Of a stretch of 37,663 nucleotides of DNA, positions 28,857-37,196 are shown in pieces; the stretch's first letter is position 1, and each line of letters begins with the position of its first letter. Source of the DNA: an uncultured archaeon (GTDB lineage Archaea; Aenigmatarchaeota; Aenigmatarchaeia; CG10238-14); assembly GCA_964392445.1 (NCBI GenBank), contig CAYMPD010000010.1:1-37663 (forward strand). Reading direction: 5' to 3'. The translations under genes and the position numbers were made by a program. The notes under the pieces are model-generated. The model saw nothing but the letters and a program-made list of their open reading frames with translations. It did not search any database and was not told the DNA's origin.

Positions 28857-28915
28857 TCCGATGATGACTGACAGGCGGACTGAAACCAGATGAAGAATCC
28901 TTTAAGTTCAGAGGA
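28857..28915 (+). ncRNA. Box C/D guide sRNA, predicted to target 16S rRNA
   Basis: TCC-G-ATGATGA(C, 28861-67)-CTGACAGGCGGA-CTGA(D', 28880-83)-AACCAG-ATGAAGA(C', 28890-96)-ATCCTTTAAGTT-CAGA(D, 28909-12)-GGA; both guides are 12 nt; terminal stem TCC/GGA. Confidence 0.8.
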
Positions 28916-31586: not shown

Positions 31587-31771
31587 TTCATAGGCTTACC
31601 AACTTTAGCAATCTAGGTCTCTCAAACGATTAGTAACAGTAGGCTAAATATCTCGAGCGAACTCTTGATACGTACACCTCTGTTCTATCAAACTCATCGT
31701 CTATGAGTGTCTTCGCCACAAAACCGTATATCGCTACACAGCATTGTGAATGTTGGTCTATTTTTGAGGTC

Positions 31772-31923: not shown

Positions 31924-31957
<34 letters not shown>

Positions 31958-32084
31958 AACGTCCCCCTTTGATCAGTGGACACCTGCACCCTTGGTTGCT
32001 ACTGCACAACCAGGAGGGGGGGAGCCGACAGCGGAGAAGCAATGCGCCTCGTCGATGTGGACTCTCGGAGGCCACGACTCCATT

Positions 32085-33550: not shown

Positions 33551-34180
33551 TTAGGCCAATAATAGTGCTAGTTTCGATTTCTTATCTGGATGTTGAAAAG
33601 GAATTAAAGAATTGAATTTTCTTATAGATTCATCGTTACTTATAGATAGAACAAATCTCGGATAATTACTCATCCTTGTTTTAGTTCTCAATCTTACTCC
33701 CCCTGTTTTTATTTTTAAACTTATGAGGAAATTTCTAATATCCCTCAAAGGTGGGCATTCTTTGGAATTATTCCATGAGTGATAAAAGTCTATGTTTATA
33801 TACTTTTTATCATCTTTTTTGTAAACACCTATTCCACCTTCTGCGTCAAAAAATCCTGCTATATACCATCTAATCATTTCCCTATCTTTTATAAAAGATG
33901 GTGTTCCCCAGAATATTTGTTCTCCTGAAAATGGAAATTCTTTTCCTAAGAGCCAATTGAATAGTTTTTTACTAGAAAATTTTAATTTATAACCATTTCT
34001 AGCATTCTTAATAGGAGTTTTAATGTTGAAAACTTCTATTAGAATTTTTTGGATAAACTCCAACCAATTTTTGTTTTTCTGCCAAATTACTATATTGTAT
34101 TTTTTATTGTTAAACTTCGCTGATCCATCTCTGAAAGCCCCTAGAAAATAAGATTCCAATAATTTTTTATCTTGAATCAT
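33551..34180 (-). CDS. Two-motif LAGLIDADG homing endonuclease
   Basis: YFLGAFRDGSA and WYIAGFFDAEGGI. ATG at 34180 (track uses TTG at 34189); the stop TAA ends exactly at the 3' splice site. Confidence 0.9.
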   Translation of the reverse strand: MIQDKKLLESYFLGAFRDGSAKFNNKKYNIVIWQKNKNWLEFIQKILIEVFNIKTPIKNARNGYKLKFSSKKLFNWLLGKEFPFSGEQIFWGTPSFIKDREMIRWYIAGFFDAEGGIGVYKKDDKKYINIDFYHSWNNSKECPPLRDIRNFLISLKIKTGGVRLRTKTRMSNYPRFVLSISNDESIRKFNSLIPFQHPDKKSKLALLLA

Positions 34181-34253
34181 AGTATCCAATGTATATATAT
34201 TAATTTTTATACTATTTAAGTTTTTCCAAATAAGAAAACAGCACTATTACTGT
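33551..34253 (-). mobile_element. 703-nt BHB 23S intron after G1062 (helix 43, GTPase-associated centre)
   Basis: Removal restores GGAGGUAG|GCUUAGAAACAGCC. Canonical BHB: exon helix UUGGG/CUUAG, central helix AGGU/GCCU, bulges AG|A and AA|G, 14-bp intron stem. Confidence 0.92.
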
Positions 34254-34513
34254 CTACCTCCCAACTGTCTGAGGATATGAACATCCTTCAGCAGTTAGTT
34301 GATATTTAAACACCTTAACCCTGGTCTCGGTTTTTCCCGTTTCGGAGGCCCGGCTTACCCGGACACCCTCACTTTGGATCTTCTACGACGATAAGAGATT
34401 CGGAGTTTAACAGGAAAGCTGAGCCTTTCGACCCTCGACAATCCAATTGGTAGCTCTACCCTCTTATCTATCTCTGATCCGGCTGCACTAAGATGCATTT
34501 TTCGAGGAACCCG

Positions 34514-35278
34514 CTATTTCCAGTCTCGATTGGCTTTTGGTGCTGGATTTGCTGAAAAAGTATTAATCATAATATTAAGAACTTCGTTTTTAGTATGGTT
34601 CTTCCATCTTTTGCTCCCATGTATTTTTACGTTTTCTATAAAACCGATCTCATTCCGGTATTTATTGAATTGATCAATTCCACTTATTCTAATTTCATTA
34701 AAAGTTTTTGTCGTATTATATCCACAATCTTTAATTAATTTATCCCAATCCTTCCTCAAATTTGGATTATGACATCGAAGAAACAATCTTCTTTGCCAAT
34801 AAGATTTTTCTCTTACCTTAATCTTATGGAATTCAATACCACCATCGGTACTCATAGCAATTTTGACGGCGATTTTTTTACGACTTAAAGGTCCATTTTT
34901 TATTATAGATGGAATTTCTGCTGGAGGATAACCATTAATCGGTTTACATTCCCTACAAGCAGCTTTTTCTGGAACTCCCTTTAATTTCGGACAAATTGGA
35001 TAAGTTTCACATTTTCTAGTTCTATAACTTCTAGAAAATTTTAGCAAGTATTTTGCTATACTAACATCACAAATCCGTACTTTAGTTACTGTGGAACTTT
35101 TTATCTCCTTAAAATCTAACTTTTTTCCGAATATTTCATTCATTTCTATTTTAAAGAGTTCACGTATGCTTTTTGAATTGCTCGTCAAAAATATTTCATA
35201 ACTGTTTTCACTGAGTCTCGAAATACCTCCATCAGTCAATAGCAAAGTAATTACTGAAACTAAAGGAATTTTGTCCAT
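34514..35278 (-). CDS. Two-motif LAGLIDADG homing endonuclease with a Cys-rich insert; the ORF runs past the 3' splice site
   Basis: ITLLLTDGGI and IAMSTDGGI; there is no stop codon inside the intron. Confidence 0.85.
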   Translation of the reverse strand: MDKIPLVSVITLLLTDGGISRLSENSYEIFLTSNSKSIRELFKIEMNEIFGKKLDFKEIKSSTVTKVRICDVSIAKYLLKFSRSYRTRKCETYPICPKLKGVPEKAACRECKPINGYPPAEIPSIIKNGPLSRKKIAVKIAMSTDGGIEFHKIKVREKSYWQRRLFLRCHNPNLRKDWDKLIKDCGYNTTKTFNEIRISGIDQFNKYRNEIGFIENVKIHGSKRWKNHTKNEVLNIMINTFSANPAPKANRDWK

Positions 35279-35322: not shown

Positions 35323-36269
35323 TTCACCCCTAACCCCAAGTCACCCGAGCGATTGGTCCTCAGCATCGGTAACAGTCCTCCATCCAGCTTTCGCCGGACT
35401 TCAACTTACTTAGGGTTAGATCGACTGGCTTCGGGTCTTATCCCAGTGATTTATAGGCGCTTATCACACCCCGAGCCACACTGAAGCAAGCTTCAGCTAC
35501 GCTCTTGTTGCTTTCGCTAAAATTTTCATTTCACCACTGAAATAAACTCCCTGACCCATTCTTCAAAACGGATGTTGCAACACTGATAAACTTTCGTGCC
35601 GCAACTGCCTATATCTGCTTGGTTTCAGGCTCTTTTCGCCTCCCGTTAAGGATGCTTTTCAGTTTTCTCTCACGATACTAAATACGCTATCGGACTTCGG
35701 TTATATTTAGGGTTGGATGTAAATGTCACCCAAATTCTTGGTCTATATCCAAAGAACAGTACTCAGGATACTTGGCATTTCACTTCTTGTATCTTTCTAC
35801 GAGACTATCACTCTCTATGGTGTCCCTTTCCAGGGAACTTTAAATTAACAAGTTAGAGAAGACCCAAGTCCTATAACACCACATTCTTACTAGTTCATCA
35901 CTAGCAAGTTCGGTTTGCCCTTTGTCGCTTTTATTCGCCATTACTCACGACATCTCAATTGATTTCTCTTCCTGCGGGTACTAAGATGCTTCAATCTCCC
36001 GCGTCAGATTTCCTTTCGGAATGTCCCGAAGGACAGGATTTCCCATTCAGACATCTCAAGATCAAAGGCTGCATGCGCCTACCTTGAGCTTATCGCAGCT
36101 TACCACGTCCTTTATCTCTTCCAAAGCCTAACCATCCACCAAACAGAATCTACGACCTAGATTTTTGCTGTTGGTAAACCTATGATAGAATCATCAAAAT
36201 CTTCCTTACGGTCGATTTTCTTCTCTTAACCCCTCATAGCATCCTGAAGAGTCGCATCTTTTGTTTTTT

Positions 36270-36330
36270 GGCTCAAATGGTGTCCTTTCTCTTCATCTTA
36301 AATCAGAGAGACAGTTCGTCTATCACAGCC
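36270..36330 (-). ncRNA. Box C/D guide sRNA in the 23S leader, complementary to this 23S PTC
   Basis: GGC-U-GUGAUAG(C)-ACGAACUGUCUCU-CUGA(D')-UUUAAG-AUGAAGA(C')-GAAAGGACACCAU-UUGA(D)-GCC. The C/D K-turn carries a compensatory A-U pair; the guides match the plus strand at 31927-31937 and 31978-31984. Confidence 0.8.
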
Positions 36331-36337
36331 AAAAAGA

Positions 36338-36398
36338 ATTGTAACTAGATAAAACCAATGCATCATTTTATTCAGACATACTGGCACCTAGTTTACAA
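36338..36398 (-). ncRNA. H/ACA-like K-loop hairpin in the 23S leader
   Basis: Basal stem AACUAG/CUAGUU followed directly by ACA, an internal pocket, a short upper stem, and an apical CUGA-AUAAA-AUGAUG K-loop. No target identified. Confidence 0.5.
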
Positions 36399-36418
36399 GA
36401 ATAATATTGGTAGGAGCA

Positions 36419-36434
36419 TATTTAAATAGTTTAT
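36419..36434 (-). promoter_or_regulatory. Probable promoter (TATA box) of the 23S precursor
   Basis: Minus-strand TTTAAATA at 36426-36419 would place the start site near 36400, at the first leader hairpin; no other clear TATA lies between it and the 23S. Confidence 0.55.
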
Positions 36435-36452: not shown

Positions 36453-37196
36453 CTAAAATCTTTTACTCAAACTTCTTTTATGCCAAATTATAGCTACAAT
36501 GAAAAACAGGGTAGTAAAACCTAAAAGGATTACTAAGTTCAAAATTGGTGACAAATAGCTACTACCTTCGATCGAATATCTGGCTATATCTGTATAATAA
36601 GTTAAAGGGGAAATGAATGAGATAAGTCTACTTGCACCAGGCATTTGACTAAGAGGAATAAAGACCCCGCTTATAAAAATTAAAGGAAATTTTATCAGGG
36701 AGGATAACATCATTATATTGGAAGGTTTATCAGTAGGGGGTGCAGATAGGACTAAACCGAATGCAGAGAAACAGAAAGCAGCTATTATTGTCCCTAATAC
36801 CAGACTTAAGGTTATAATCTCAATTCCCAATAACGCAACACCTAATAAAAGGACAAAGGTTATTACAAAGAGTCCAAATAAAAAGGATGCTAACATATCC
36901 CCAAAAATGATTGCCCATAGAGATATTGGAGCTGAAACAATACGCTCGAGAGTTTTTGTACTAGTCTCCATTGGAGCTATAGCTGGACCAATAGAGGTTG
37001 ATGTGAAAAAAAGGGCCATAGGTAATAAACCAGAAAACAAGAATTCCATTGTCAGTTCTTTACCCAAAGCAAAAGATACGAACAAAAACGCGGGTAAAAG
37101 CAGACCAAAAATTATCACCGGTCCTTTCATGTAATATATGGATAAATCTTTTTTAACGATTGCTAAAGATCTTTTTATCTGATCCAAAATGTTCAT
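36453..37196 (-). CDS. ABC-2 type transporter permease
   Basis: Six TM helices; TLERIVSAPIS, FISGVFIPL, ISPLTY. Confidence 0.88.
   Translation of the reverse strand: MNILDQIKRSLAIVKKDLSIYYMKGPVIIFGLLLPAFLFVSFALGKELTMEFLFSGLLPMALFFTSTSIGPAIAPMETSTKTLERIVSAPISLWAIIFGDMLASFLFGLFVITFVLLLGVALLGIEIITLSLVLGTIIAAFCFSAFGLVLSAPPTDKPSNIMMLSSLIKFPLIFISGVFIPLSQMPGASRLISFISPLTYYTDIARYSIEGSSYLSPILNLVILLGFTTLFFIVAIIWHKRSLSKRF

Follow-up and report, generated by a model that had tools for sequence, protein, structure and literature searches.

How an archaeal lineage in which no RlmE/FtsJ methyltransferase is found might still methylate the A loop of its large ribosomal subunit is a question raised by a 61-nucleotide (nt) element just upstream of a 23S ribosomal RNA (rRNA) gene in an uncultured archaeon of the order CG10238-14 (Aenigmatarchaeota). 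The stretch analysed here, termed the window, is the whole of the 37,663-nt contig CAYMPD010000010.1 (C10) of assembly GCA_964392445.1 (G000), a genome of 1.2 Mb that is 94.9% complete and has a G+C content of 34%. The 23S gene occupies 36163-31610 on the minus strand and is unlinked in this genome, as the 16S rRNA gene sits on a separate contig. Our comparative analysis indicated that the element at 36335-36265 (minus strand) is probably a box C/D small RNA (sRNA) in the 5' leader of this unlinked 23S rRNA, co-transcribed with it and guiding predicted 2'-O-methylation of U2552 in the A loop and of A2600 in helix 93 (Escherichia coli numbering). In E. coli U2552 is 2'-O-methylated and loss of the modification slows growth, and A-loop modification at the equivalents of U2552 and/or G2553 has always been present in the organisms studied (PMC7994747).

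Anatomy and conservation of the leader sRNA

The minus strand at 36330-36270 reads GGC-UGU-GAUAG-ACGAACUGUCUCU-CUGA-UUUAAG-AUGAAGA-GAAAGGACACCAU-UUGA-GCC, which is the complete 61-nt C/D RNA with the box placement put forward in the original prediction, and inclusion of an 8-base-pair (bp) terminal stem extends the element to 36335-36265. Its parts are as follows.

36328-36335, minus strand: 5' strand of the terminal stem (UUUUUGGC), pairing with 36272-36265
36320-36327, minus strand: 5' strand of the K-turn, a 3-nt bulge UGU leading into the C box GUGAUAG, a RUGAUGA variant with A at position 6
36307-36319, minus strand: D' guide ACGAACUGUCUCU, 13 nt, forming 11 bp with 31937-31927
36303-36306, minus strand: D' box CUGA, invariant in all relatives
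36297-36302, minus strand: K-loop spacer UUUAAG between the D' and C' boxes, varying freely in length and sequence among relatives
36290-36296, minus strand: C' box AUGAAGA, in which UGA-GA is invariant, with the variants AUGACGA, GUGACGA and UGAUGA
36277-36289, minus strand: D guide GAAAGGACACCAU with the core GGACACC, the core invariant in the family and the flanks variable
36273-36276, minus strand: D box UUGA, a variant of CUGA whose U1 pairs with A6 of the C box, invariant in the family
36265-36272, minus strand: 3' strand of the terminal stem (GCCAAAAA), with covariation along the stem

The GUGAUA/UUGA motif together with its 3-nt bulge and GA/GA pairs has the make-up needed for a K-turn beside the terminal stem, while the free variation of the K-loop spacer is as expected of an unconstrained loop. 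Both guides (C to D' and C' to D) measure 13 nt in this genome and 12-13 nt in relatives. Searches of Rfam at gathering thresholds returned only large subunit rRNA in the window and no curated C/D family for the leader sRNA, although the Rfam C/D families are guide-specific and such a miss therefore does not exclude membership of the class. Sub-threshold matches spanning the element, in the leader and on the same strand, were confined to CD-box snoRNA families at exactly these coordinates, the best being snoZ163 (20.4 bits, E = 0.037). A strict scan of the genome for canonical C/D sRNAs gave few candidates and overlooked the leader sRNA because its C box is a variant.

The window also holds a second dual-guide C/D sRNA at 28861-28912 (plus strand) with a canonical C box (AUGAUGA) and the D box CAGA, whose D guide pairs with 16S rRNA over 11 bp including one G.U. 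Its C' box AUGAAGA is the same as that of the leader sRNA, in keeping with what had been remarked of an sRNA near 28890.

Comparison of the leader with 40 relatives by blastn showed the sRNA as a conserved island. It lies upstream of 23S in 13/13 same-family genomes that have this flank, and in 12 relatives from 5 genera it is always approximately 100-110 nt 5' of the 23S gene and on the same strand. Boxes and guide cores are invariant in the family alignment (13 genomes), including CGAACUGUCUCU of the D' guide, and the K-loop spacer and guide flanks are variable; the UGAU of the C box is likewise invariant in 13 relatives. A covariance model identified 17 further matches in families f2, f5 and f6 of the order, all 130-290 nt upstream of 23S, and laxer searches and direct inspection supplied additional homologues beyond these. 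Across the order, an sRNA with the A-loop guide was present in 46 of the 51 leaders examined, the five without it being genus g20, and the expectation that relatives would keep the element upstream of 23S was thus borne out at both levels.

Outside the order such guides were found in G159, which was also the only such match of model R1 over the phylum sample. Forty leaders inspected directly in other orders of the class yielded no GG[A/G][C/U]ACC motif and a single C/D candidate (G186), and the leaders of the 38 other genomes from these orders, besides G159 and G186, yielded no such guide. On these data the arrangement is confined to the one order plus family f23. A pattern scan of public genomes placed the relatives of the window among metagenome-assembled genomes of Candidatus Aenigmatarchaeota; it also returned chance matches in bacteria and a Conexivisphaerales match that does not adjoin a 23S gene, and these were rejected. 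One 2337-nt contig (JBDRNN010000093.1, L111) filed in a 'Bathyarchaeota' genome assembly carries a leader sRNA of the family type, with one extra nucleotide ahead of CUGA in its D' guide, and a 23S 5' end that is 82% identical to that of the window; this contig has probably been mis-binned.

Structural covariation was found in both the terminal stem and the K-turn. Five pairs of the terminal stem change on both sides, including alignment columns 6-73, 7-72, 8-71 and 10-69, and the observed covariation score was reached by 0/500 shuffles. Position 6 of the C box pairs with position 1 of the D box, and across the order the two occur as UGAUA/UUGA, UGAUG/CUGA, UGAGC/GCGA, UGAGU/ACGA and UGAUC/GUGA, so that the compensatory A-U pair ascribed to the window's boxes is one state of a covarying pair. 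The K-turn pairs 3b-3n and 4b-4n switch among U.U/A-U, U.U/G-C, G-C/C-G, G-C/U-A and U.U/C-G. Judged by its sequence and that of its relatives, the element at 36335-36265 is truly a box C/D RNA with two guides, situated in the 23S leader.

Targets of the two guides

The predicted targets of the two guides lie in the 23S rRNA itself, as follows.

31978-31984, minus strand: A-loop target GGUGUCC (E. coli 2550-2556), with the predicted 2'-O-methyl site U2552 at 31982
31927-31937, minus strand: helix 93 target GAGACAGUUCG (E. coli 2597-2607), with the predicted site A2600 at 31934

The duplex of the D' guide with helix 93 has 11 Watson-Crick bp (-19.9 kcal/mol), and that of the D guide with GGUGUCC (31984-31978) has 7 bp. 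Alignment to E. coli rrl places 31982 at U2552 and 31934 at A2600, both opposite guide position 5, and this N+5 nucleotide is Watson-Crick paired for either guide; pairing and alignment therefore agree with the original prediction for both targets. The sites are 48 nt apart and approximately 2.6 kb downstream of the sRNA in spliced coordinates (4.3 kb in the gene), and double guides with sites no more than 100 nt apart are common (PMC4644070). Chance complementarity was estimated from 200,000 composition-preserving shuffles of the guides, in which an 11-bp match of the D' guide anywhere in spliced 23S and 16S rRNA arose in 0.32%, a 7-bp match of the D guide within 100 nt of the helix 93 site in 6.7% and an N+5 position falling exactly on U2552 in 0.034%.

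A second perfect GGUGUCC, overlooked earlier, occurs in 23S exon 2 near 34365, and was rejected as a target since this site changes in relatives and the guide does not, leaving the A loop as the sole conserved complement of the D guide. Matches of 7-8 bp at 23S positions 129, 286 and 406 were also rejected, as either the site or the guide flank is unconserved.

The A loop across the order reads either GGUGUCC or GGUGCCC, and the D guide was found to change with it, as the proposed check for guide/target covariation had anticipated. Genomes with U2554 (GGUGUCC) carry the guide GGACACC in 21/21 cases, while 9/14 of those with C2554 (GGUGCCC) carry GGGCACC or GGGUACC and 5/14 retain GGACACC; no genome combined a G-type guide with a U-type A loop. 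On a tree of 23S 5' parts the guide and A-loop characters each change at least six times, and three sister contrasts show co-change (G082 versus G104; G052/G097/G096 versus G103; G107 versus G117/G113/G036) with none in the opposite direction. Guides that read GGGUACC or GGAUACC can still pair with G2553 by way of a G.U wobble. The spacing of GG[A/G][C/U]ACC, 2 nt and D box is constant in every parsed homologue, and thus the N+5 nucleotide is U2552 in every one, with an A-loop duplex of 8-9 bp in most relatives. Together these comparisons give good support for predicted pairing of the D guide with the A loop.

Covariation of this kind is impossible at helix 93, whose target is universally conserved, and the history of its guide was instead followed through the order. 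In families f2, f5 and f6 the helix 93 guide, (G)CGAACUGUCU, serves as the D guide of another leader C/D sRNA, placed between the first one and the processing stem and furnished with a covarying terminal stem of its own; in approximately 22 of approximately 30 of these second sRNAs the distance to the D box makes A2600 the N+5 nucleotide. The window's family has lost this second sRNA, and its helix 93 guide is found in the first sRNA, at the D' position. As the sister families bear this guide on the second sRNA, the ancestral state looks like two tandem leader sRNAs, one for each target in the peptidyl-transferase centre, from which both guides would have come to reside on one RNA in the window's family. 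For CUGACAGCGU, the D' guide carried by the second sRNA of family f2 (L044, L054, L057, L157-L160), the rRNA parts searched contained no complement, and its only rRNA match, with the 23S segment GGACAGCGUCAG(A/G)UGGGCAGUU, is in the same sense.

These patterns bear on whether the element might be no guide at all, and serve solely as a structural or processing part of the leader, an L7Ae-binding K-turn whose guide-like stretches have no targeting role. Its place in a pre-rRNA spacer and its K-turn would suit such a role, and a K-turn in spliced pre-rRNA spacers, that of the 16S-D RNA, was reportedly described by Tang et al. in 2002. Against this, no part of the element is more strongly conserved than the guide cores, the D guide changes in step with its target, two distinct sRNA contexts preserve the helix 93 guide and the shuffle odds oppose chance complementarity, making a purely structural role highly improbable.

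Transcription and processing of the leader

Three further features frame the sRNA and the 23S gene.

36419-36426, minus strand: candidate TATA box TTTAAATA of the sRNA-23S unit, preceded by an A-rich stretch resembling a transcription factor B recognition element; putative promoter
36154-36184, minus strand: 5' strand of the processing stem, CAUAGGUUUACCAAC, AGCA, the bulge AAA (36165-36163) and AUCUAGGUC, part of the bulge-helix-bulge
31589-31619, minus strand: 3' strand of the processing stem, GACCUAGAU, UGCU, the bulge AAA and GUUGGUAAGCCUAUG, part of the bulge-helix-bulge

A motif similar to AAAnnTTTAAATA was found approximately 85-95 nt upstream of the sRNA in about 12 of the 13 same-family genomes, whereas G018 has only a TATA-like motif approximately 35 nt upstream. 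G003 also has the AAAnnTTTAAATA-like motif, with a transfer RNA (tRNA) gene and part of a 16S gene further upstream. Reading of the 105 nt that separate sRNA from 23S in the window's genus (g1) revealed neither a conserved promoter nor five or more consecutive T. From the conserved promoter approximately 90 nt upstream and the lack of a conserved one between sRNA and 23S in this genus, we infer, as the original prediction did, that the sRNA is co-transcribed with 23S.

The bulge-helix-bulge is a canonical 3-4-3 motif placed directly on helix 1, and its outer helix starts at 36184, in agreement with the 85-nt gap to the sRNA given before. Wetland metatranscriptome contigs of close relatives (runs X4, X7, X9 and X13) contain a match that stops at 36165 and continues into the 23S 3' end; these junction contigs cover 36154-36169 and 31607-31619, and in reverse complement their loose end reads ...GAGAGACCUAGAUUGCU. 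This junction is that of a circular pre-23S, a form known in other archaea (PMC7038931). One low-depth contig (approximately 2) from an RNA library of a relative covers the sRNA and nothing else, which is weak evidence for a stable RNA of approximately 50-70 nt. As the RNA data consist of contigs, transcript starts, ends and strand cannot be read from them.

Several other features surround this unit. An ABC-2 permease gene ends at 36453, and an ABC transporter operon lies upstream of the promoter-sRNA-23S unit in this genome; the corresponding region of the same-genus locus L011 (G003:C15) holds a tRNA together with a fragmentary match to 16S. A GGUG(N5-6)AUG motif located between the candidate promoter and the sRNA (36340-36400, minus strand) is conserved in the family. 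On the other side (36185-36264, minus strand; loci L041-L057, L166 and L167) the hairpin GCAACUCUUC...GAAGGGUGAAG just 3' of the first sRNA is conserved across the order, as is GAUGAAAC(Y)AUCAUAGG, which abuts the processing stem. Compared with a relative that has no introns, the 23S gene contains three insertions (35321-34539, 34253-33554 and 32212-32085), the second of which codes for a LAGLIDADG protein (open reading frame 33551-34189, 37.7 bits); the open reading frame 34514-35278, also in the 23S gene region, had no Pfam match.

Mode of action and the missing RlmE

A group of observations speaks against the assignment of a co-transcribed guide for U2552 and A2600 and must be set beside the evidence above. 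On the side of the targets, the 7-bp A-loop duplex of this genome falls under the 9-bp pairing criterion of Dennis et al. 2015, which was relaxed for double guides, and A2600 is not among the methylation sites predicted for the seven archaea of that study (PMC4644070). The guide spacing of 13 nt departs from the usual 12; five genomes of two genera (G017, G013; G090, G092, G039) have an A.C mismatch in the A-loop duplex; and in approximately seven genomes (G027, G081 and genus g20) the helix 93 guide is 1 nt shorter and points to C2601. A phylogeny-aware independent-pairs sign test of the co-change was not significant, and with only four independent pairs it was unable to reach significance. 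On the side of transcription, a T5 run immediately precedes the sRNA in this genome; genus g4 has TATTTAAAT approximately 35 nt upstream of the sRNA and an AT-rich TATA-like sequence between sRNA and 23S, such that transcript architecture may differ between genera; and no metatranscriptome contig covers 36186-36247 or 36341-36460, although the runs hold relatives only and these gaps therefore say nothing on transcription in the window's genome.

The short duplex, the tolerated A.C mismatches and the register shift at helix 93, which suggests that pairing outweighs the exact nucleotide, would all be accommodated if the ribonucleoprotein (RNP) formed on the sRNA acted mainly as an assembly chaperone that clamps the A-loop and helix 93 strands of nascent domain V, methylation being absent or incidental at one or both sites. 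Such a role has been proposed for double guides (PMC4644070). The fixed spacing from the GGACACC core to the D box, which always leaves U2552 at N+5, the retention of fibrillarin and the failure to find any other enzyme for U2552 methylation argue otherwise, and we regard a role mainly as a chaperone as quite unlikely.

The T5 run and the g4 motifs can similarly be read as signs of an independent gene, in which the same RNA with the same targets has its own promoter or is released at once and works in trans only, its place near 23S reflecting shared regulation or gene order. Any transcribed context can give rise to mature archaeal C/D sRNAs, through protection of the RNP body (PMC7994747), and bulge-helix-bulge cleavage would part the leader from 23S in any case. 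Against this stand the single conserved promoter in nearly all 13 family genomes, the absence of a conserved promoter or T run downstream of the sRNA in genus g1 and a position kept in approximately 50 genomes though the flanks diverge freely, and an independent gene thus appears unlikely.

The reading that we prefer, a co-transcribed leader guide, can be laid out as a series of predicted steps. Transcription would start at the conserved promoter approximately 90 nt upstream and pass through the sRNA into 23S. L7Ae would bind at the C/D K-turn (GUGAUA/UUGA) as well as at the C'/D' K-loop, followed by Nop5-fibrillarin. Once domain V has been synthesized, the D guide may pair with the A loop, placing U2552 opposite guide position 5, and the D' guide with the 5' strand of helix 93, which lies a further 48 nt downstream, placing A2600 opposite guide position 5, so that both riboses would be 2'-O-methylated ahead of folding of the peptidyl-transferase centre. 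The splicing endonuclease would then cleave the bulge-helix-bulge and free the leader from pre-23S, and the protein-covered body of the sRNA, outlasting trimming, may afterwards also work in trans.

A stronger version holds that the guide acts in cis, each pre-23S carrying a 5' C/D RNP that stays tethered until bulge-helix-bulge cleavage, and that this is how a lineage lacking RlmE produces methylated U2552. We put this forward only tentatively, as a possibility that may well prove wrong. If true, the A loop and helix 93 would be methylated and chaperoned one-to-one and co-transcriptionally, and a duplex as short as 7 bp could suffice. The leader sRNA would in that case be the pre-rRNA counterpart of the guide in the pre-tRNA-Trp intron and a prokaryotic assembly factor encoded in the spacer of its own substrate.

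The proteins encoded by these genomes bear on this question. All three C/D core proteins that the original prediction had named for checking are encoded in the window's genome above Pfam cut-offs: fibrillarin (270.5 bits; C8:34709-35347), Nop5 (208.7 bits; C8:34027-34665) and L7Ae (106.2 bits; C6:44309-44575). No RlmE/FtsJ was found in it, the best PF01728 match (19 bits) being a PCMT protein and the best TIGR00438 match being fibrillarin. PF01728 gave no match above 41 bits across 118 genomes of the order, and those of the weak matches (41 bits or less) that were checked were RsmB/F-type and PCMT methyltransferases and were set aside. RlmE/FtsJ was absent from 150/151 genomes sampled across the phylum. 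The lone true FtsJ/RlmE in this sample (G209:C78:2408-2953, L209; 186.8 bits) could reflect transfer, contamination or retention. The earlier idea that the guide replaces RlmE/FtsJ therefore holds in so far as no such enzyme was found in the genome; its loss is far wider than the leader guide and is not tied to it, because RlmE is also missing in orders whose inspected 23S leaders yielded no such guide. The absence of RlmE nevertheless fits a predicted RNA-guided methylation of U2552.

Guides for these two regions have precedents. Dennis et al. 2015 predicted sRNA-guided methylation of U2552 in 5/7 archaea and C2606, at the base of helix 93, as a conserved site in six of them (PMC4644070). The closest likeness is sR10 of Nanoarchaeum equitans, another small-genome DPANN archaeon, a dual-guide C/D sRNA with one guide on the first A-loop nucleotide (U2826 in the alignment, equal to E. 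coli U2552) and the other on helix 93 (PMC4644070; PMC3491384). Its D' guide is directed to the A loop and its D guide to U2880 (E. coli C2606), whereas in the leader sRNA the D guide is directed to U2552 and the D' guide to A2600, and the searched text of these two sources reports no link of sR10 to the 23S leader. The likeness is one of guide targets.

The equivalent methylation in yeast offers a further comparison. The C/D RNP of snR52, an independent gene, makes Um2921 of the A loop (equal to E. coli U2552), which is made in bacteria by RlmE/FtsJ, and yeast keeps the FtsJ-type Spb1 as a backup. The leader sRNA resembles snR52 as a C/D guide for the A-loop site and differs in lying in the 23S leader of a genome without a detected FtsJ homologue. 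The box C/D guide of the pre-tRNA-Trp intron (Clouet d'Orval et al. 2001, as cited in PMC7994747) lies, in the review's account, within the precursor of its own target RNA and is removed by the bulge-helix-bulge splicing endonuclease pathway. As described there, that guide is intronic with its target a few nt away, while the leader sRNA lies in a 5' leader with predicted targets kilobases downstream.

A 2021 review of archaeal C/D sRNA contexts lists overlaps with open reading frames, clusters, tRNA-sRNA dicistrons and a tRNA intron acting in cis, with no pre-rRNA leader among them (PMC7994747), and the reviews and papers searched contained no description of a C/D guide in the leader of the rRNA that it targets. 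C/D guides for U2552 and helix 93 are thus already known, and what is new is the conserved position in the 23S leader.

In summary, the leader sRNA provides a natural setting in which to ask if rRNA modification in archaea can be tethered and co-transcriptional; it also illustrates cleanly how guide and target co-evolve at the catalytic centre, and how guide modules pass between sRNAs, here from a tandem pair to a single one. Its motif is readily recognized and should help in the annotation of 23S leaders and C/D sRNAs in these metagenome-assembled genomes. For the order itself, the leader guide likely explains how a lineage without RlmE would keep the near-universal methylation of the A loop.

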